Positions 7,801-63,664 are shown, counted from the stretch's first letter. The stretch is 64,000 bases of DNA from Bdellovibrionota bacterium (GCA_050950765.1 JBMNIF010000002.1:1120001-1184000); one strand, 5' to 3'. Numbers and translations are program-made. Notes: generated by a model from the letters alone, not told the origin.

Positions 7801-8097
7801 TTAGAGAAGCGCACTCTTCTTGGCGCGGGACTCTTCTTTACGAAGTTTCTTTAATGATTCTTTTAGTTTACGTTTGCTGCGCTCTGACGGTTTTTCGTAA
7901 TAACGGCGCATTTTTAACTCTTTAAAAAGCCCCTCTTTGATCAACTTACGCTTAAGGATCTTCATCGCTTTCTCAATATTGTGATCTACTGTCACTTCCA
8001 ACGCAGCCGTGCGGGGAGCATCTGTAACGTCGCGCTGCTCGTTTGCGATAGAGGCAACCTCTCCTGTTTTTGTGTTTTCGTTTTTATTTTCAGCCAC
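7801..8097 (-). CDS. rpsU: 30S ribosomal protein S21 with N-terminal extension
   Basis: NIEKAMKILKRKLIKEGLFKELKMRRYYEKPSE is a bS21 signature. Confidence 0.88.
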   Translation of the reverse strand: MAENKNENTKTGEVASIANEQRDVTDAPRTAALEVTVDHNIEKAMKILKRKLIKEGLFKELKMRRYYEKPSERSKRKLKESLKKLRKEESRAKKSALL

Positions 8098-8254
8098 TTA
8101 TTTCTCTATTTTACAAAAAATTGCTTAAAAAATTGTCTACCGGAGGCCTAATGGGTACCCTACGGATACCTAAAAAATATCGCAAAATAACCGCCGATGG
8201 CTCCCGTTATTACCTAATTTTATTAAAAAAGTAAAGAGTCTGCGCCCTGATAAT

Positions 8255-9325
8255 TTATATTCCGAAACAGGTGCCAACGGCACGAGCTGCCGAAATAAGT
8301 GGATGATCTAACGGCACTGTGCGTTGTTTACCCATCACTTTTTCAAGGGGAACATCCACGATATCAACCCCTTTTAGCGCAACCATCTTATTAAAGTTCC
8401 CTGAAACTATTAACTCTACAGCCTTTGTGGCAAATTGAGTGGCAAGCACCCTATCGTGTGGAGAAGGGGTGCCGCCTCTTTGCAGGTGCCCTAAGATCGT
8501 CACTCTGGAATCTAACCCTGTCAGTTGACTCAAGCTCTCCGCTATAATGTGACTGATCCCACCTAATCTGCGTTGATTTCGTGTGTCCTGCTGGTAGGTT
8601 TGCTCTCCAGCTAGCGGTTTTGCGCCTTCGGCCACGACGACAATACTAAAACGCTTCCCCTCTTTGTAACGGTCTAAAATAGAAGAGGCAACGATCTCTA
8701 TATTATACGGCATCTCCGGAATTAAAATAGTATCACCACCCCCTGCAATACCGGCCTCCAGCGCCAGCCAACCTGCATTACGCCCCATTACCTCTACCGC
8801 CATAATGCGGTGATGAGCGTGCGCTGTGGTATGTAATTTATCTATGGCCTCTGTTGCAGTTACTAACGCCGAATCAAAACCGAAAGTGGCGTCCGTCTCC
8901 ATTAGATCTTTATCGATCGTTTTCGGCACCCCGATAACATTTATTCCCCGCTCTGCTAGCTTTCCAGCTAAGGTCATCGTGCCATCACCACCTACGCAAA
9001 CTAAGGCTGAAAGATTAAGCTCGTGGTATAGATCTATACATCTTTGTGAAAGGTCACTATAAGTGCCGTCACTATTAGGCATATGAAAGGGGTCTGCTTG
9101 ATTAGTAGATCCTAAGATCGTTCCACCCTGTGTTAAAATCCCAGAGACGTGTTTTGAATCAAGCACCTCATAGCGTTTTTCTATCATCCCGAGGAAGCTG
9201 TCATAAAACCCGATAACCTGCATCCCGTATCGGTTGATAGCACTCTTTGTAACACCTCTAATAACGGCATTTAATCCAGGGCAGTCCCCACCCCCAGTTA
9301 AGATCCCTATGGTTTGCTTTGACAT
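8255..9325 (-). CDS. pfkA: 6-phosphofructokinase (PfkA family, group III-like)
   Basis: TGGGDCPGLNAVIR, GGTILGS, GGDGT, PKTID, EVMGR.AGW, LGHLQRGG. Confidence 0.93.
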   Translation of the reverse strand: MSKQTIGILTGGGDCPGLNAVIRGVTKSAINRYGMQVIGFYDSFLGMIEKRYEVLDSKHVSGILTQGGTILGSTNQADPFHMPNSDGTYSDLSQRCIDLYHELNLSALVCVGGDGTMTLAGKLAERGINVIGVPKTIDKDLMETDATFGFDSALVTATEAIDKLHTTAHAHHRIMAVEVMGRNAGWLALEAGIAGGGDTILIPEMPYNIEIVASSILDRYKEGKRFSIVVVAEGAKPLAGEQTYQQDTRNQRRLGGISHIIAESLSQLTGLDSRVTILGHLQRGGTPSPHDRVLATQFATKAVELIVSGNFNKMVALKGVDIVDVPLEKVMGKQRTVPLDHPLISAARAVGTCFGI

Positions 9326-25762: not shown

Positions 25763-26848
25763 ATGCCTAAAAATGAGTGGGAGATGGGAGGATCTGATAA
25801 TAATTTTGATTTTGACGGTTGGGAAGTTGATGCGGTAGCTCCACTATGGTGGAAAGTGCTACTTATTGTACTGTTGTGTTGTGGTGCTCTGTTTGTAACG
25901 TGGTTGCTTGCGTTGGTGTTTTTTGGAGTGCAGGTGCCAGCGACCTCTTATGGTGTACGCCAGATCCTAATTCCGCCTTTTCGTGGTTATACACAAACGT
26001 TAAGTCTTGGACGGCACCTTGAAGTGCCGTGGGTTATGAAGGTACATCTAGTACCGAAATCTGTGCAGTTCGTATCGTTTAAAGTTCCACTCAGAAATCT
26101 GCAAAAAAACGTGGCGGCGAAAGATCAGATCATGCCTTTGACTGATGCGGAGATAAGAGCTGCCTTCCGATTTTTTGAAGGGAGAGATGGTGCTGTCGTA
26201 AAAACACTTAAAAGTGTCGGTTATAAAAAGGAGGGGTGGGAGCGTTTTATTGAAGAGAAGCTCTCTAAAGAGTTCTTAGCTGTTACCTCTGAACAAGATC
26301 TGATAACCCTCTCTTTTTCTGATTATGTAGATGTGTTGCATAAAGTGCAGGAGTCTGCTCAAAAACGGTTTAACAGATACGGCATAGATCTTATTAGCCT
26401 TTTTTTCATTGATGCTCCCAACACTTCTAAATTAACAAAGAACCTTAAAGATCGAAGTGAACTTGAATTGAAACAACGTGAATTACGTTTATTACAGGAA
26501 CGGTTAGCTACTGAAAGCTTTAAAGGGAGGGGAAAGCTTGAAAGTTTCAGAGCGGCTGTGCAGGCTGAAAAAGAAGCGATCCTTGAAGAGGCTGAGCGTT
26601 ATAAAATTCAGAAAGAAAGTGCGGGAGATATCTTACTTGCACAAGCTATTGCTGCTGTCGAACAAGAGAGAAAAGTTATCTTGTCGGTGCTCCCTGAAGC
26701 TGAACGGTATATCGCAAAACGTATTTATGAAACACGGACACAAAAAACACCTTCCGCTTCATCTGAAAGATCTGAGAAGGGCAATGAACAGACATCACTT
26801 CCGCTTAAGGAGGATATTACAGAAGGAGCTTTGCAATGCAGAGAATAA
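25763..26848 (+). CDS. Divergent SPFH/HflK-like membrane protein
   Basis: N-terminal TM, QVPATSYGVRQ, G.HL.VPW, YGIDL, AE/AQ-rich coiled coil. Confidence 0.55.
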   Translation: MPKNEWEMGGSDNNFDFDGWEVDAVAPLWWKVLLIVLLCCGALFVTWLLALVFFGVQVPATSYGVRQILIPPFRGYTQTLSLGRHLEVPWVMKVHLVPKSVQFVSFKVPLRNLQKNVAAKDQIMPLTDAEIRAAFRFFEGRDGAVVKTLKSVGYKKEGWERFIEEKLSKEFLAVTSEQDLITLSFSDYVDVLHKVQESAQKRFNRYGIDLISLFFIDAPNTSKLTKNLKDRSELELKQRELRLLQERLATESFKGRGKLESFRAAVQAEKEAILEEAERYKIQKESAGDILLAQAIAAVEQERKVILSVLPEAERYIAKRIYETRTQKTPSASSERSEKGNEQTSLPLKEDITEGALQCRE

Positions 26849-27720
26849 TCGTTGTTATCTTTATACTAATGTTGAGTGCTTGCAAAACTCCGTTTAAAAC
26901 ACTTACTGCTACGGAACGCGCTGGACTCTTTTGTAAATTGCCAAGTTTTTTATGTCTTGAAAAGAGAGGTAAGGTTTTATCGACAGGACGCGTTTTTGTT
27001 TGGGCGTGGGAAGATCTAAAGGTTGTAGATGTAGCGGAAGGGTCGCTTACCCTCTTTTTTAATAACGATACGATTAGTGTAAAGCGTTCGGATCTAAACG
27101 TTCCTTTGGGTGTCGTTTCTTTAACTTATAAAGTTTCTGATACGGAAGAAGACCTTATGAACTTCATAGAAGCTTTTGATGGGGGGAAAAAAGAGCTCTT
27201 TATTACTTTTTTGGAGACTCAATTACGACATCTCTTGATAGTGAATGATCTCGGAGCTGCCTTTTCAGATGCAGCACTTCTAAAAGATCTTAACGGGGTG
27301 ATGTTACAAACATTACAGGAAGGTTTTAAACGTTTCGGGGTAGAGATTAGATCATTAAAACTTGAAGAGTATTATGACAGCGCTGCGCTAGCGAAAGATC
27401 GGGAAGCGCTTAAAGAGGTGAACTCTAAAATTATGCAGTTAAAAGTTGAATTAGCAAGAGTTGAAAATGGTGCGGAAGATGATCTTGAGATTGAAAAGAT
27501 CGCTTCAGAGCGAGAGCTTGAAGAGGCGAGACGTACAGCACAAACGATTAAAGCTGCCGCTGCACGTTATTATAAGTTTAAAGCAGATCGATCTGAAGTT
27601 ATTCGGGAGTCTGGGAAATTAAAAAATCAAGCGTTGCAAGAGATAGTGAGTCTTTTAGCAGCGTCAGAGGGAGAGGCGTTGTTACAACTTGAAACAGAAG
27701 AGAGGAAGCATGAAAGATGA
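26836..27720 (+). CDS. Divergent SPFH-like lipoprotein
   Basis: LSA-C lipobox, FGVEIRSLKL, C-terminal coiled coil; overlaps both neighbours. Confidence 0.5.
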   Translation: MQRIIVVIFILMLSACKTPFKTLTATERAGLFCKLPSFLCLEKRGKVLSTGRVFVWAWEDLKVVDVAEGSLTLFFNNDTISVKRSDLNVPLGVVSLTYKVSDTEEDLMNFIEAFDGGKKELFITFLETQLRHLLIVNDLGAAFSDAALLKDLNGVMLQTLQEGFKRFGVEIRSLKLEEYYDSAALAKDREALKEVNSKIMQLKVELARVENGAEDDLEIEKIASERELEEARRTAQTIKAAAARYYKFKADRSEVIRESGKLKNQALQEIVSLLAASEGEALLQLETEERKHER

Positions 27721-37073: not shown

Positions 37074-37588
37074 AATTACTATCTTTAATTTTAAGTTTTT
37101 ATACCCTCAGTATATCGATATAAGGTCTTATATGGAGATAATAATCTAAGCGATTATGAAAAAGGCTGAAAGTAGTTGTTTTTTGATTAAAAGCGGAGAT
37201 ATTACTGTGCAAAAGATCTTTTCAATTATCTGATTTTACCCATAGAGGTTCGTTCGGAAAAAAATGAGAATGCTACAAAAATTATTATTAAAAAATAGGG
37301 TATATTTAAAATGAGCGTAAATTTAAGCTTGCAAAAAGATAGATTCTCTAAGAAGAAGGAGATTGATAAAGATAAGCTTAATAATAAAAGTAAAAAGGAG
37401 AAGATAAGAGCTTTAGATAAGTAGTATTTACTAACCTCAATTCCATTCGGTGTTTTTTAAAAAATATGAGCCTTAAAGTTTTCACCTCAAGGCTCATAAC
37501 GTTCTAGAAGGGCGACGCGCAACACCTACCATAGTTGTCGGAGATCTTGCCGTCGCTTGTTTCCTTCTATTAGCCGCGTGCGTAGATA

Positions 37589-37927
37589 CTAAGCCTGTTC
37601 CGCTGATCCTACGGAGGCGTGGAAAAGACCTTTGTATAAACTACGCTTACTCAAATGCTGGACCACTTTGTTCGCAAACGACAACAGCAAAGGATAATCT
37701 GCGTTTGGCACCATAAATACTATGGTGTCGTATCCCTTCATGGTGTCATGCCCTTCCTCCCAGAATGTAGTCTGGTACGACGGATTCGTTTTTCTCCAAC
37801 AGACATCGATAGCGATTTTTAAGAGAAACAATTTGAAACGAGATTCATCACTAGGGCACACGAATGCGATAGGTTGGCAAGAATTATCCCCGTTATATGC
37901 GAGGGGATCTTCTTTTGCTTGGCACAC
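37589..37927 (-). CDS. Cassette ORF, hypothetical (112 aa)
   Basis: AAGGAG-6 nt-GTG at 37927; open to 37589; alternative ATG at 37960. Confidence 0.6.
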   Translation of the reverse strand: MCQAKEDPLAYNGDNSCQPIAFVCPSDESRFKLFLLKIAIDVCWRKTNPSYQTTFWEEGHDTMKGYDTIVFMVPNADYPLLLSFANKVVQHLSKRSLYKGLFHASVGSAEQA

Positions 37928-37987
37928 TTTATTCTCCTTTAGTGCGGGTGATTGACTCATTCTGGATATCGAACATTCGAATATCAC

Positions 37988-38044
37988 CCGATGAGTCGTC
38001 TCTATCAAGTTGTGAAAAAGAACTAAACAGAAACGACTCATCGG
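37988..38044 (-). promoter_or_regulatory. Conserved 24-bp leader hairpin (copy 1)
   Basis: ccgatgagtcgtttctgtttagtt-loop-aacttgatagagacgactcatcgg on the minus strand. Confidence 0.8.
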
Positions 38045-38581
38045 AGAAGGAGTCCCTTTTGGAAAAAAAGGAGGATGCCGAGAAAAGCCCTACCACTTTT
38101 AAACGTCAAATGGATATACTAAAAAAATCCTTTATAAAAACCGATCTTCTACCCATTACCAAGCTCTTATCTTATAAGATGCGATTTTATACGAGACTTT
38201 ATTTTTAGGCAAAAAAATAGTGAAGATCCGATCTTATAATTTAAAAAGCTTAAAATTTAAGGTCTTATATTTAAAACGAGCGTAAATTTAAGCTTGCAAA
38301 AAGATAGATTCTCTAAGAAGAAGTTCTAAGATAAAGAAAGCCCAAGCTTAATAATAAAAGTAAAAAGGAGAAGATAAGAGCAACGAATGGACACTAAAGA
38401 ACCGAAGCGAAAAACCTCTGTATAGCATCCATCCGTTGTTCTTAAGCATAAGGTCTAAAGTGCTCCCTTGAAAATTTCAAAGGGCTTCAGGGCTTACAAC
38501 GTTCTAGGAACGACGTGCGACGGTACCGAGAAGGCGTAGCAGGTCATGCCAACACTTAGCGGTTAGTAATTGCCGTTGTCT

Positions 38582-38989
38582 TCAGGTATTTGGTTCTTGA
38601 TACCAATCGTCTTCAAATATTGGTTCCGGATTGTAATGCCACTTAAACGTGAGATAGGAGGTAATAACTTCTAAAGAGGTCACTATCTTTTCCACAACCG
38701 AAGTGAATTTTTCGAGGAACTCTTCTTCAGTTGTGGCACCAAGATCGTAGACAGTTACCGTGATCACTATAAGGTCATTTCTCCTTGAGGGGTCGCTATT
38801 TATCGAGTGGTGACATTCCATTTTGAAAGTTTCCGAAAAGCCCGACGAAGAATATTCCCCCCAGTAATCGCAGATAGAATTTTTGAGTTGATCCATTCTG
38901 GATTCCCATTCGAGATTAGTTTCGTCGGGTGATCCGCGATTAATTTCGAGGTTGGCTTGGTATTTCAAGCCTCCAAGGCTTTCCTCCAT
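38582..38989 (-). CDS. Cassette ORF, hypothetical acidic protein (135 aa)
   Basis: AGGAG RBS before ATG 38989 (MEESLGG...). Confidence 0.7.
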   Translation of the reverse strand: MEESLGGLKYQANLEINRGSPDETNLEWESRMDQLKNSICDYWGEYSSSGFSETFKMECHHSINSDPSRRNDLIVITVTVYDLGATTEEEFLEKFTSVVEKIVTSLEVITSYLTFKWHYNPEPIFEDDWYQEPNT

Positions 38990-39051
38990 GACGGTTTCTC
39001 CTATAATGAAAAAGTTAAACTCATTCTGGATATCGAACGTTCGAATATCAC

Positions 39052-39106
39052 CCGATGAGTCGTCTCTATCAAGTTGAAAAAGAACTAAACAGAAACGACT
39101 CATCGG
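39052..39106 (-). promoter_or_regulatory. Conserved leader hairpin (copy 2)
   Basis: Same arms as copy 1; 2-nt deletion at the loop. Confidence 0.8.
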
Positions 39107-39622
39107 AGAAGGAGTCCCTTTTGGAAAAAAAGGAGGATGCCGAGAAAAGCCCTATCGTTTTTAAACGTCAAATGGATACACTAAAAAAAATCCTTTGTAA
39201 AAACCGATCTTCTACCCATTACCAAGCTCTTATCTTATGGTACGTGAGTCTATACGAGACTTTATTTTTGAGGCAACACGTTTAGGCAAAAAAATAGTGA
39301 AGATCCGATCTTAATAATTTAAAAAGCTTAAAATTTAGGGTCTTATATTTAAAACGAGCGTAAATTTAAGCTTGCAAAAAGATAGATTCTCTAAGAATTA
39401 GGAGATTGATAAAGATAAGCTTAATAATAAAAGTAAAAAGGAGAAGATAAGAGCAACGAATGGACACTAAAGAACCGAAGCGAAAAACCTCTGTATAGCA
39501 TCCATCCGTTGTTCTTAAGCATAAGCCCTAAAGTGCCCCTTGAAAATTTCAAGGGCTTCAGGGCTTACAACGTTCTAGGAACAACGTGCAACGTTGCCGA
39601 GAAGGCGTAGCAGCACGCTAGC

Positions 39623-40240
39623 TTATGCACAGTCTTCGTCTTCTGGAGCGGGAATATCGTAAGAAGATCCTTGAATCCCTACGCCCGTACCGTCATCAAA
39701 CGATATTGTTAAGGAGCCACCGCCGAGCTGTTTGGCGAGAGATTCCCCAAGGAAGTCGAGTTCTTCTAGGGATATGCCGTAACCTTTTGGGAGACGGAAT
39801 TCAACCGTTACATAGCGATAGTTTTCATCTGCGTAGACTTCAACGACAACCTGTTCGCACTTTGAGAATTTTTCGCTCAGTTCTCCTCCCACAAGGAAGG
39901 CGAGCTCTTCCGACGTTTTCTCATTGACGGAGGGACAATCTCTTAAGGTAATACAGTATTGATTGTACCCCACTCCCATTATGCAAAGATCGCGCGATTG
40001 CTTTGGAAACGAGTCCCCTTTAGAAGAGAAGAATTTCTTCTTGTCGGTGTAAATTCTTACCTCAATCTTGAGAGGGAAAGTTTCTCCGTTTACGTTAATC
40101 TCGAAAAGGAAATCGAAAACGGAAACTGTGGATTCGATAAGGTTCCCGCACCTATCAGGTTCACGTTCAATAACGGTCCTTTCCTTCCATCCTTTCAACG
40201 AGATTTGCTGATAGCAGCGTTTATCCAATTTATCAGGCAT
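39623..40240 (-). CDS. Cassette ORF, hypothetical acidic protein (205 aa)
   Basis: AAGGAGG RBS before ATG 40240; no recognisable motif. Confidence 0.75.
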   Translation of the reverse strand: MPDKLDKRCYQQISLKGWKERTVIEREPDRCGNLIESTVSVFDFLFEINVNGETFPLKIEVRIYTDKKKFFSSKGDSFPKQSRDLCIMGVGYNQYCITLRDCPSVNEKTSEELAFLVGGELSEKFSKCEQVVVEVYADENYRYVTVEFRLPKGYGISLEELDFLGESLAKQLGGGSLTISFDDGTGVGIQGSSYDIPAPEDEDCA

Positions 40241-40327
40241 TATAGTTATAGCCTCCTTGTATCACAGTTGTGAACACCGACTCGCTTTCGGATACGTAAT
40301 GATTAAGATATCACGTGATATCACCCT

Positions 40328-40384
40328 CCGATGAGTCGTCTCTATCAAGTTGTGAAAAAGAACTAAACAGAAACGACTCATCGG
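40328..40384 (-). promoter_or_regulatory. Conserved leader hairpin (copy 3)
   Basis: Same arms; the stem extends at the base by ct/ag. Confidence 0.8.
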
Positions 40385-40939
40385 AGAAGGAGTCCCTTTT
40401 GGAAAAAAAGGAGGACGAGCCCTATCGCTTTTAAACGTCAAATGGATACACTAAAAAAAATCCTTTATAAAAACCGATCTTCTACCCATTACCAAGCTCT
40501 TATCTTATAACTTATAAGTTTACACGATGGTTTATTTCTAAGCAAAAAAATCCACTCTTTTGACGTCTTTAAAAGCAAAAAATAATTAAAACCTTAGATA
40601 CTTTAGGACGGTAAGATGGTCATGAATAAACGTTTAAAATCACACCGTTGAAGAAGATAAGTTTATCACTTATTAAGGTAAGATGCCGATATAACAAGAG
40701 TTTGAGTGTAGATCTACGATATTCTTCCCCTCTGTTAAGGTATCTTAGCAAGAAGGTGCGGCGACGGCGTGGTCGTCTACGGAGAGAAGGAAAGATGAAA
40801 GTTCTTTTATTAGTAGTTTTATTGGGAGTGCAGTGCGATACGAAGGGATGCGCTTAATTTATCACTTACCACCACATTTTTTATAAAATACCCTTATTAT
40901 TTAATGTAGTAGGATCTTTCTTAGCAGGATTTTTTACCT

Positions 40940-41044
40940 CCTTTAGCACCTCTTCGATCTGGAAGGTGCAAAGTATGCAGTATTTACACTGATGGGAGCA
41001 GCCACGACCTTTAACACCTCTTCGATCTGGAAGGTGTAAAGTAT
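40940..41044. repeat. Two 37-nt hairpin-forming direct repeats with a 31-nt unique spacer
   Basis: ccttta(g/a)cacctcttcgatctggaaggtg(c/t)aaagtat at 40940 and 41008. Confidence 0.85.
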
Positions 41045-62087: not shown

Positions 62088-63664
62088 CCCTAACTCTTCA
62101 TATTTCAGGAATATATTTCAATAAAAAATTAAATATCCTTTAAAAAAGGTATTGTGCTTTAAAAATATTGGTGTATTATATATTACGTATTGCGTAATAC
62201 GTTAGGAGATATATATCATGACATATCCAGATTGGGTTTTGAAAGAAAAAAAGAAAGGCACTGAGGTAGTTCACAGGAACGGCAAATATTATTTGTATAA
62301 AATAAGTTCTGTGTGGAATAAGGAAAAGGGACGTGCTCAGAAGGTTACCTTAGAATACCTTGGCAGGATAACTGAAGATAAGGGTCTTATTCCCCCTAAA
62401 CGTAGGGGTTCTTACAAAGATGGAGAAGTTTCTGCAAAGGAGTATGGAGCTAGCAAAACACTTTGTGAGTTAGGAAAAGACATATTAAATCGCTTAGAAG
62501 ATAGGTTTCCGAATGATTATCAAAAGATTTTTTCTATTGCTGCTTTAAGAGTAATTGAGCGTTGTCCGTTTAAGGGGATTGATTTTTTGTATGAGAAATC
62601 TTTTTTATCTGAACGCTTCGGAAAGCTTGCTCTATCTTCCTCTAGCATATCAAGGTTTTTAAGGGAGCTAGGTAGCCAGAGACCAAAGTTAGTTGGTTTT
62701 ATGAAAGAGTATGTTTGCGATGTTGATTATCTTTTTTTTGATTTAACAAATATAATAAGTAAATCGGAAAATGTTGAAATAAATAGAGTTGGCTATAACA
62801 GTCATCATGATTTTGATCCTCAAATTGGCTTAATGTATGCTTTTTCAGCGGATGACAGTTCTCCCACTTATTACAGAGTTATTCCTGGAAATATAAGAGA
62901 TGTGAGGGCATTTAAGGGGAGTATAGAAGAGGCTGGTATAAAGGATGCTGTAATAGTTGCAGATAAAGGGTTTGGCTCACAAGAGAATTTTAAGTTATTA
63001 AAAGAAGCTAATTTAAAATATATTGTTCCATTAAGGCGCAATAATTCAAACATAAACAGAGAGATTTTAAGATGTGGAGACAAGTCTAAGTTTGAAAATT
63101 TTTTCTTTCATAATGCTCGTCCTATATGGCCTTACTCATATAAAATAAACGAAGATCGTCTTATTGTTTGTCTTGATGAATCGCTTAAGGCTAGAGAAGA
63201 GACTGATTATCTGCGTAGAGTTCAAGAAAATATAGAAGGCTACACAAAAGAAGGTTTTATCGATAAACAATACCAATTCGGAACGATTACTTTTCAAACG
63301 AACCTCGATTTGCCATGCGACAAGGTATTTTGTTTATATAAGGCAAGAAATGAAATAGAGATGACATTCGATTTTTTAAAAAACCTATTAGAGCAAGATC
63401 GTGTATACTTGCAAGATAAATATGCGATTGAAGCTTGGGCGTTCATAAACCATATTTCACTTATGCTTGTTTATTTGATATATCATAAACTTAAAGAAAG
63501 TGAACTTATTTCTAAATATTCCATTCAAGAATTTATTACACATCTTAAATATATAAGTTATTTAAAAATCGGAGACTCGTGGGTAGTAAGTGAGATTTCA
63601 GGTAAAACACAAAAAATTTTAGAAAAATTAAAAATTCATATTACGCAAACGTGAAGAGTTAGGG
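62088..63664 (+). mobile_element. Insertion sequence, probably IS1634 family, 1577 bp
   Basis: 13-bp terminal IRs ccctaactcttca/tgaagagttaggg; TTTAAA target duplication on both sides; single transposase whose stop lies in the right IR. Confidence 0.9.
62218..63654 (+). CDS. DDE transposase (IS1634/IS4-like)
   Basis: N-terminal YYLY..SSVW.KEK..Q...YLGRI; FFDLT, PGN.RD, VADKGF, YKAR.EIE..F..LK. Confidence 0.9.
   Translation: MTYPDWVLKEKKKGTEVVHRNGKYYLYKISSVWNKEKGRAQKVTLEYLGRITEDKGLIPPKRRGSYKDGEVSAKEYGASKTLCELGKDILNRLEDRFPNDYQKIFSIAALRVIERCPFKGIDFLYEKSFLSERFGKLALSSSSISRFLRELGSQRPKLVGFMKEYVCDVDYLFFDLTNIISKSENVEINRVGYNSHHDFDPQIGLMYAFSADDSSPTYYRVIPGNIRDVRAFKGSIEEAGIKDAVIVADKGFGSQENFKLLKEANLKYIVPLRRNNSNINREILRCGDKSKFENFFFHNARPIWPYSYKINEDRLIVCLDESLKAREETDYLRRVQENIEGYTKEGFIDKQYQFGTITFQTNLDLPCDKVFCLYKARNEIEMTFDFLKNLLEQDRVYLQDKYAIEAWAFINHISLMLVYLIYHKLKESELISKYSIQEFITHLKYISYLKIGDSWVVSEISGKTQKILEKLKIHITQT

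Follow-up and report, generated by a model that had tools for sequence, protein, structure and literature searches.

The PeSL cassettes of T4-type phages are promoter plus stem-loop repeats that lie between small ORFan genes and extend from a stop codon to the next Shine-Dalgarno (SD) sequence, with homologous recombination between the repeats inserting, deleting or replacing the enclosed genes (PMC2839356, PMC4122927). Putative mobile promoters are upstream regions at least 80% identical over at least 50 nt before non-paralogous genes; some are common to families or higher taxa, most have neither an Rfam match nor a known means of movement, and the survey covered -150 to -50 only (PMC3575422). 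At the Borrelia erp loci, conserved 5' promoter/operator DNA precedes divergent co-regulated genes (ospE, ospF, elp), which are carried on cp32 prophages and encode lipoproteins with a conserved leader peptide, their transcripts starting 14 bp before the start codon (PMC9112904). Here we analyzed a 64,000-nt window (contig C2, positions 1120001-1184000) of a Bdellovibrionota genome, G000 (2.64 Mb, five contigs, 40% GC), in which three unlike orphan open reading frames (ORFs) sit in a tandem array of closely similar non-coding frames, each unit consisting of a leader, an ORF (its cargo) and a trailer. Coordinates without a prefix are window positions; C2 and C3 are contigs of G000, and L010 is a contig of a second genome, G008. 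We assign a probability of about 0.5 to the reading that a regulatory frame has spread horizontally, selection and gene conversion maintaining its likeness while the enclosed cargo diverges fast and recombines.

Among described systems, the PeSL cassettes and putative mobile promoters appear closest to this element, with erp as a looser parallel. The likeness to PeSL lies in a promoter and stem-loop placed between small ORFan genes and reaching the next SD: sigma-70-like hexamers of a predicted promoter occur at the same place in 6/6 leaders, the hairpins covary, and similarity continues up to the SD. Whereas PeSL are short motifs in phage hyperplastic regions, the present frame measures ~650 nt, lies in a bacterial chromosome, is common to bacterial families and comprises a long structured 5' untranslated region (UTR) and a complementary 3' UTR; mini-circles were not seen here. 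The setting is one of housekeeping genes with no phage genes nearby, and blastn of block 1 (defined below) against phage and plasmid records gave no match. As with putative mobile promoters, the leader core is 89-93% identical among the three array units (76-78% to G008) in front of dissimilar cargo; unlike them, it is joined by a matched trailer, a tandem arrangement, RNA covariation and 5'-3' complementarity. In contrast to the erp loci, there is no shared peptide, the predicted 5' UTR is long, and the trailer is conserved. The element is thus much longer than known mobile regulatory cassettes, cellular and cross-family, with a matched 3' part predicted to pair with its 5' part, and no description of it was found in the literature searched.

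The three minus-strand ORFs announced by the original prediction were borne out, each with an AGGAG-type ribosome-binding site: ORF1 (37589-37927; 112 aa, GTG start), ORF2 (38582-38989; 135 aa, acidic by eye) and ORF3 (39623-40240; 205 aa, acidic by eye) encode the orphan proteins referred to as cargo 1, 2 and 3. The claim that a ~620-nt block recurs between them, with its halves at the array ends, held as well. Stretches 37955-38545 and 39019-39613 are 91% identical over 588/591 nt, the leader half returns at 40318-40551 (88%) and the trailer half at 37301-37411 (90%); the remaining ORF1 trailer (37412-37588) is more decayed, with its motifs kept. Wider comparison shifted the outer boundaries, the leader of the first unit reaching ~40574 rather than the proposed 40550 and the last trailer ending at ~37288. 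In full, and all on the minus strand, block 2 (38990-39622) joins the ORF3 trailer (39343-39622) to the ORF2 leader (38990-39342), and block 1 (37928-38581) joins the ORF2 trailer (38265-38581) to the ORF1 leader (37928-38264), so that the trailer of one unit abuts the next leader at ~39343 and ~38265. Because each solo copy elsewhere in G000 has a single ORF between its leader and its trailer, the repeated entity is leader-ORF-trailer and not the intergenic block. A unit comprises a ~335-nt leader, the ORF and a ~315-nt trailer, and six units are known, five in G000 and one in G008. Past the last array trailer lies a remnant of a further leader (37253-37287, minus strand; a 21-nt match to the T-run region of the leader), and leader remnants also follow the solo trailer on C2; arrays therefore grow and decay.

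The likeness of the ORF1 and ORF2 leaders extends as far as the ribosome-binding site and ends 5 nt short of the start codon. The ORF3 leader subtype parts from that of ORF1/ORF2 just after hairpin HP1, with ~85 nt left to the start, and past the stops similarity returns after ~10-40 nt. With codon usage trained on 675 long ORFs of G000, the blocks score -0.48 to -1.07 bits per codon in all six frames, whereas the ORFs are positive only in their own frame, at +0.14 to +0.20, where known genes give 0.20-0.36. Small plus-strand ORFs within the blocks (37897-38208, 39055-39285) were rejected, their frames differing between copies and their codon scores being negative.

As had been proposed, conservation is higher in the non-coding DNA than in the genes that it encloses: the blocks are 91% identical, and local alignments of the array ORFs against 300 shuffles found 0/3 pairs significant (z <= 2.4). 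The ORFs do not, therefore, align as recent duplicates, which the original prediction had named as a counter-explanation. A phmmer comparison within a set of ORFs from all six frames of the genome gave no cross-match among the array ORFs either. Of the 15 pairs formed by the six cargo proteins, which span 112-302 aa, only one is significant: ORF3 and the G008 cargo are distant homologs (25% identity, z 6.6, 0/300 shuffles) and also have their leader subtype in common. Database matches were scarce, with 0/5 cargo proteins matched in Pfam, 0/6 in PADLOC, 0/6 in NCBIfam, and weak matches only in PHROGs (best E 0.0052). ORF2 and ORF3 found only themselves among 5.8 billion clustered proteins; the 302-aa cargo had one relative (54% identity) in the large protein search; and a profile of ORF3 with the G008 cargo, run against 1.84 billion representatives, recovered two proteins, ORF3 and one that has 77% identity with the G008 cargo. 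The ESM Atlas model of ORF3 has a pTM of 0.70, with alpha+beta sandwiches at a TM of about 0.4 as structural neighbors; that of ORF2 is poor (pTM 0.37), its neighbors again being alpha+beta sandwiches; and AlphaFold2 predictions of ORF3 alone or with two relatives were unusable (pLDDT 39.7 and 39.4). Judged by eye, no cargo has an evident signal peptide or a hydrophobic segment of membrane-spanning length. Codon usage, ribosome-binding sites, RNA-library contigs from two studies and the pTM of 0.70 are the grounds on which we take the ORFs to be real genes; as part of the best explanation, and at the same even odds, their products would be small, cytoplasmic, fast-changing proteins.

Searching the genome and its relatives with the block, as the original prediction had advised, showed that the frame is not confined to the array but encloses other ORFs at two more G000 loci and in G008, which bears out the proposal of a fixed leader and trailer around unlike cargo. 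The solo unit on C2 (C2:1226650-1228078) holds the 302-aa ORF (C2:1226813-1227721), and the more diverged one on C3 (C3:375379-376200) a 129-aa ORF (C3:375635-376024); of the solo loci, one is bordered by an ABC ATPase gene and a lipoyl synthase gene, and the other is next to an acyl-CoA-synthetase-like gene. The G008 unit (L010:7902-9049) is made up of a trailer (7902-8154), an ORF (8155-8721) and a leader (8722-9049). Distribution is patchy: the leader occurs in 2/91 genomes of the same order, G000 and G008, the latter belonging to another family, and in the same two of 124 genomes of a phylum sample. A third "match" in a first look at 41 genomes was a 27-nt chance match. The exact hairpin pattern returned three stretches in genome contigs (G008 and two chance matches in coding DNA), one chance match in metagenome contigs and none in viral contigs, and a covariance model built from the anti-SD, HP1 and HP2 found no unit beyond the six in four genomes. 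The array itself occurs in bioreactor and digester metagenomes of 15 studies.

Comparison of the ORF3 and G008 units reproduces the contrast between frame and cargo across families. In slices of 50 columns, 35-47/50 nt are identical in the flanks against 14-30/50 in the cargo; G000 and G008 flanks are 78-85% identical (85% for the ORF3 leader), and the cargo proteins 25%. GC content in G008 is 42% for the cargo, 32-34% for the frame, 35% for the contig and 25-26% for neighboring spacers. SPFH/Band 7 gene pairs occur near both loci, at 25763-27717 in the window, ~10 kb from the array, and at L010 5210-7359, directly beside the G008 unit; with only 24% identity between the SPFH proteins of G000 and G008, it is doubtful that the site is of common descent. 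Flanks that are alike beside cargo and SPFH proteins that have diverged, together with the GC contrast in G008, imply horizontal transfer, extreme constraint, or both. The genes on either side of the G008 unit share 74% DNA identity with those of G041, which belongs to the same genus and whose SPFH genes are likewise only 74% identical to those of G008. G041 is without the unit and without ~4 kb of neighboring genes, and the ~5 kb absent there is more than the unit alone. A giant cysteine-rich protein is encoded beside the SPFH pair in both genomes (G008, L010 12783-16673; G041, L031 3573-7061) and is conserved between them, with tandem repeat units of roughly 130-140 aa as judged from how far apart the GRGMVKVNCQYGCENGACKP motifs lie. 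An 83-aa ORF (G000:C2:1225577-1225828, plus strand), ~1 kb downstream of the solo unit on C2, contains three copies of a DHSTPEQRKEAMT repeat.

The leader has a constant anatomy. A promoter-like TTGCYT-17/18-TAnAMT occurs at the same place in five of the six leaders, the sixth having TTTACA-17-TATAAG. In unit 1 this site is TTGCCT-17-TAAAAT (38184-38212), followed after ~10 nt by the motif AAGATAAGAGCTT, which we call IR-L (38173-38161), by an 8-bp stem (38157-38109) and a small hairpin, and by an anti-SD, CTCCTT (38051-38046), that pairs with the SD in an RNAalifold prediction on the alignment. Two hairpins come next, HP1 (38045-37988) and HP2 (37988-37964), the latter varying in sequence between subtypes with the hairpin retained; a variable spacer, the SD and the start codon complete the leader. 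The unit 2 leader follows the same plan (promoter-like site 39247-39276, IR-L 39224-39236, HP1 39052-39107, HP2 39028-39052), as does that of unit 3 (40241-40574), with a promoter-like TTGCTT-17-TAAACT (40517-40545), IR-L (40494-40506), the stem (40441-40490), an anti-SD (40387-40392), HP1 (40328-40385), a variant B of HP2 (40307-40325) and the SD (40252-40258). HP1 comprises 24 pairs with 99.3% of alignment cells paired and four pairs with compensatory double changes, and the observed values of the whole 31-pair leader model were reached by 0/500 shuffles. The HP1 region folds 6.5-10 kcal/mol better as sense than as antisense RNA in 6/6 copies. An N-terminal extension of the cargo from an ATG inside HP1 is in frame and open in 3/6 units; it was rejected because a 2-nt indel sets ORF1 and ORF2 in different frames, because the other three units have stops and no ribosome-binding site serves it, and because the stem shows RNA-type compensatory changes. 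A proximal promoter-like TTGATA-17-GATATT was also set aside, being present in only 2/3 array leaders with a first hexamer not kept in G008.

Trailers are equally regular. That of ORF2 contains the invariant CTAGAACGTT, followed by the nested hairpin T1 (38498-38447) and hairpin T2 (38436-38383), by CTCTTATCTTCTC, termed IR-R, with a T-rich run (38380-38350), and by ~100 nt of further conserved trailer ending near CTTAAATTTACG. The ORF3 trailer has a nested hairpin T1 (39520-39569), T2 (39456-39509) and IR-R with its T-rich run (39423-39453); in the ORF1 trailer (37288-37588), which belongs to the last unit and is decayed in its first half, T1 (37465-37498) precedes a T run and therefore reads as an intrinsic terminator, and IR-R with the T-rich run lies at 37380-37410. 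Trailer helices are paired in 86.9% of cells, with nine pairs showing double changes, and 0/500 shuffles reach either value. In 6/6 units IR-L is complementary to IR-R over 10-15 bp (-17 to -24 kcal/mol), and their placement is constant: IR-L precedes the start by 246-266 nt and IR-R follows the stop by 146-200 nt. How this helix is extended differs from unit to unit, yet the extension stays complementary within each (GTTTGG/CCAAC in the C2 unit), and the C3 unit forms 15 bp with two G-U pairs. This evidence comes from local pairing; duplex folding of whole leaders against whole trailers gave meaningless long-loop structures and was not used. A model ORF2 mRNA running from just past the promoter-like site to the T-rich run has z = -7.2, and its ends pair in the minimum-energy structure. 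Rfam gave no match at gathering score in the whole window and chance-level matches only (E >= 0.69) within 37100-40800. No terminal inverted repeats lie at the conserved ends and no duplication is visible at the ends of the solo units; the block accordingly resembles neither an Rfam family nor the end of a miniature inverted-repeat transposable element (MITE) or insertion sequence (IS), identities that the original prediction had named as capable of overturning it.

The anatomy, the compensatory changes, the mosaic leader described below, the patchy distribution and the presence in RNA libraries are observed; we infer the transcript ends, translational repression, pairing of the ends in the cell, and how and in which direction transfer took place. 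Each unit would be a self-contained expression module in which a sigma-70-type promoter drives an mRNA with a ~250-nt structured 5' UTR. The anti-SD lies just 5' of HP1, and its predicted pairing with the ribosome-binding site would keep translation repressed at first; opening or cutting at HP1, whose length would suit the kind of stem cut by RNase III, might free that site. The trailer motif is complementary to the 5' end of the UTR, so both mRNA ends could pair, which could serve termination, stability or storage; structured mRNA ends would control translation and, probably, stability. Purifying selection on RNA and promoter, together with gene conversion between neighboring units, may hold the frame. 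Because the frame is alike everywhere it would also act as portable homology, within which ordinary homologous recombination could move cargo between units, strains and even families of Bdellovibrionota, with no dedicated recombinase required. In hok-type mRNAs, likewise, the 5' end pairs with the 3' end and the ribosome-binding site is sequestered, the message being stable but inert until processed. Both 5'-3' pairing and SD sequestration are predicted here, but the cargo consists of soluble proteins of 112-302 aa and not of small hydrophobic toxins. Cargo size and hydrophobicity do not fit a type I toxin-antitoxin system, and no antisense RNA was identified, although no search was aimed at one.

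Recombination has left traces within the frame. From after the promoter to the end of HP1, the ORF3 leader is 89-90% like those of ORF1 and ORF2 and 78% like that of G008; from HP2 to the SD the values are 29-30% and 67%, and upstream of the promoter 49-54% and 68%. Such a mosaic requires recombination inside the frame. The distal ORF1 trailer, in turn, is 97% like the ORF3 trailer and 89% like the ORF2 trailer. Together, these comparisons indicate that the central frame has been homogenized in the array and that ~30-100 nt next to the cargo travel with it. We also compared contigs from RNA libraries of two studies (X12 and X14) and from DNA runs (X7 and X10). All three ORFs are covered by contigs of both RNA libraries with between zero and a few differences. 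One X12 contig has the ORF1 flanks around 389 other nt in place of 373, and another has the ORF2 flanks around 370 other nt in place of 407. These inserts and the mosaic leader may reflect gene replacement between cassettes; contig joints between blocks, from 38260 to 39339 and from 39074 to 40353, fall in 59-63 nt common to both copies and may be assembly chimeras. Circular junctions, for which the original prediction had suggested looking, did not emerge: the sole joint that "goes back" (40352 to 38125, DNA run X7) is best read as pieces of the diverged C2 locus, whose sequence appears in the loose ends. RNA-library contigs end at 37975-37981 and 39037-39043, just past HP1, where a DNA contig continues, a weak hint of a 5' end or a processing site. 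Block cores are covered by DNA contigs and not by RNA-library contigs, which is not evidence of absence.

The X12 library further contains an allele of ORF3 (39991-40215) with 19 changed codons, 18 non-synonymous and one synonymous, against an expectation by chance of 78% non-synonymous (one-sided P 0.059). Fourteen of the changed codons lie within codons 9-42, and changes also occur in the last 20 nt of the leader, which is unchanged beyond 40262. The same changes would give 6-8 synonymous ones in 4/5 other frames and one in the same-phase antisense frame. Because they hit all four bases, they lack the adenine specificity of a diversity-generating retroelement; such an element is rejected because G000 has no RVT_1 match and hence no reverse transcriptase. 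G008 has twelve RVT_1 matches on several contigs, seven of them at 160 bits and five of those in 442-aa frames, a set that looks like a multi-copy group II intron.

Several points weigh against the favored reading. Contigs cannot show transcript ends, and if those near HP1 were true 5' ends, the long UTR would fall outside the main mRNA; RNA-library contigs may also include DNA carry-over. The X12 inserts may be very divergent alleles rather than exchanged cargo. No empty site was available for comparison, G041 lacking more than the unit and the genome of the same family as G000 being too distant (ABC ATPase 35% identity, lipoyl synthase not found), and just six related units lie behind the covariation counts. 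Homologous recombination, moreover, does not explain how a unit arrives at a naive site.

The main rival to exchange is a single hyper-diverged cargo family: all cargo would descend from one gene by old tandem duplication under diversifying selection, with the UTRs kept constant by function and gene conversion. The surviving homology of the ORF3 and G008 cargo (25% identity, z 6.6), the 18:1 excess of non-synonymous changes in the ORF3 allele (P 0.059), replacement inserts about as long as the original segments (389 vs 373 and 370 vs 407 nt) and alpha+beta sandwich neighbors for the ESM Atlas models of both ORF2 and ORF3 are what one would expect of such a family, although that fold is common and the likeness weak (TM about 0.4-0.6; ORF2 model pTM 0.37). 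Yet 14/15 cargo pairs lack similarity, lengths spread over 112-302 aa, the mosaic ORF3 leader records past recombination inside the frame, and presence in two families would still need transfer, so that we regard divergence without any exchange as unlikely, if well worth keeping in view. The cargo may nonetheless be one old, very fast-diverging family rather than swapped-in unrelated genes; the data do not fully separate divergence from exchange, and both processes may act. A bolder possibility, which we consider improbable, is that the frame is an undescribed vehicle dedicated to diversifying and transferring genes in Bdellovibrionota, in which structured transcript ends (the 5'-3' pairing, the long RNase III-type hairpin and the boundary hairpins HP2 and T1) delimit the cargo and the capsule moves without a known recombinase or reverse transcriptase. 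It is very hard to credit that the true gene is the conserved block, acting as a non-coding RNA or a platform for protein binding, and that the ORFs are functionless spacer DNA. The blocks are indeed far better conserved than the ORFs and strongly structured, and the ORF3 allele bears no sign of purifying selection; but the ORFs stay open over 112-302 codons behind ribosome-binding sites at the right distance, show host-like codon usage in the right frame only and a GC content above that of the blocks, retain cargo homology between two families, include one confident language-model fold (ORF3) and, as a weak hint, are covered by RNA-library contigs where the block cores are not.

Mobile-element readings fare no better against the preferred one of a horizontally spread frame around recombining cargo. 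In a non-autonomous transposable element, IR-L and IR-R would be recognized by a transposase in trans and the ORF would be a passenger. A covarying 10-15-bp inverted repeat does flank every ORF, solo units occupy unrelated intergenic sites, and G000 encodes six Y1_Tnp-like ORF copies (32 bits) as well as DDE transposases. What defeats this reading is the internal position of the inverted repeat: conserved sequence continues for ~85 nt outside IR-L, where the promoter lies, and for ~130 nt outside IR-R, also in the solo units of both genomes. The G-U pairs suit sense-strand RNA and not DNA, G008 has no Y1_Tnp match, no target-site duplication is visible at the solo unit ends, and the block search of the whole G000 genome returned only the units, none of them next to an IS; a transposon is accordingly quite improbable. 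The six Y1_Tnp-like copies (332-350 aa) are near-identical, one of them being at G000:C2:1186722-1186937, 2.7 kb past the end of the window. Within the window, at 62218-63651 (plus strand) and 22 kb from the array, lies a gene for a 478-aa DDE_Tnp_1 transposase. Chromosomal integron arrays alternate structured attC repeats with unrelated small ORFs, their non-coding parts being better conserved than the genes; attC sites measure about 57-141 nt and carry RYYYAAC ... GTTRRRY core sites. The well-conserved repeats between unrelated small ORFs and the 58-nt imperfect palindrome of HP1 in each block thus invite the idea of ORF cassettes that a site-specific recombinase would add and remove at a folded site in the block, which we nevertheless consider largely refuted, because the integrase and attC sites that define an integron were looked for and not found. 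As the original prediction had already noted, the window holds no recombinase (no Phage_integrase tyrosine recombinase among 46 ORFs scanned) and no attC consensus (0 RYYYAAC/GTTRRRY pairs at 50-150 nt spacing on both strands of four leader/trailer stretches). The three tyrosine recombinases of G000, the nearest ~95 kb away, score at most 61 bits as integron integrase against a cut-off of 265, the single one of G008 is on another contig, the repeat of ~650 nt is ~5x longer than attC, each unit has its own promoter-like site, and HP1 is more stable as sense RNA. The integron comparison is therefore not supported. Of the co-occurring recombinase, Y1 nuclease or reverse transcriptase that the original prediction had advised looking for, none fits: Y1_Tnp is absent in G008, and both RVT_1 and an integron integrase are absent in G000. 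What stands of the proposed exchangeable cassette system is the fixed frame, the other inserts in X12 and the mosaic leader; a dedicated integron-like exchange machinery is not supported.

If the favored reading is true, bacteria, like phages, express and reshuffle fast-changing orphan genes via a long portable promoter/5'-UTR/3'-UTR frame, which would provide a handle to find such genes in metagenomes and a naturally occurring expression module that can be transferred and whose mRNA may pair end to end. It would also hint at an arms-race function in little-known bioreactor Bdellovibrionota. The locus offers a testable case of concerted non-coding evolution beside diversifying coding DNA, with non-coding parts 80-94% identical and proteins about 25%.

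The 680-nt spacer between the array and a D12 methyltransferase gene contains a 37-nt unit in two copies (40940-41044) that are 68 nt apart and 95% alike, each with a hairpin of the CACCTTCC..GGAAGGTG type; no other copy exists in the genome. At 40795-40857 (plus strand), a 20-codon ORF with a GGAGA-type ribosome-binding site resembles a bare lipoprotein signal peptide (MKVLLLVVLLGVQC...) and forms the tail of a 69-aa ORF at 40648-40857.

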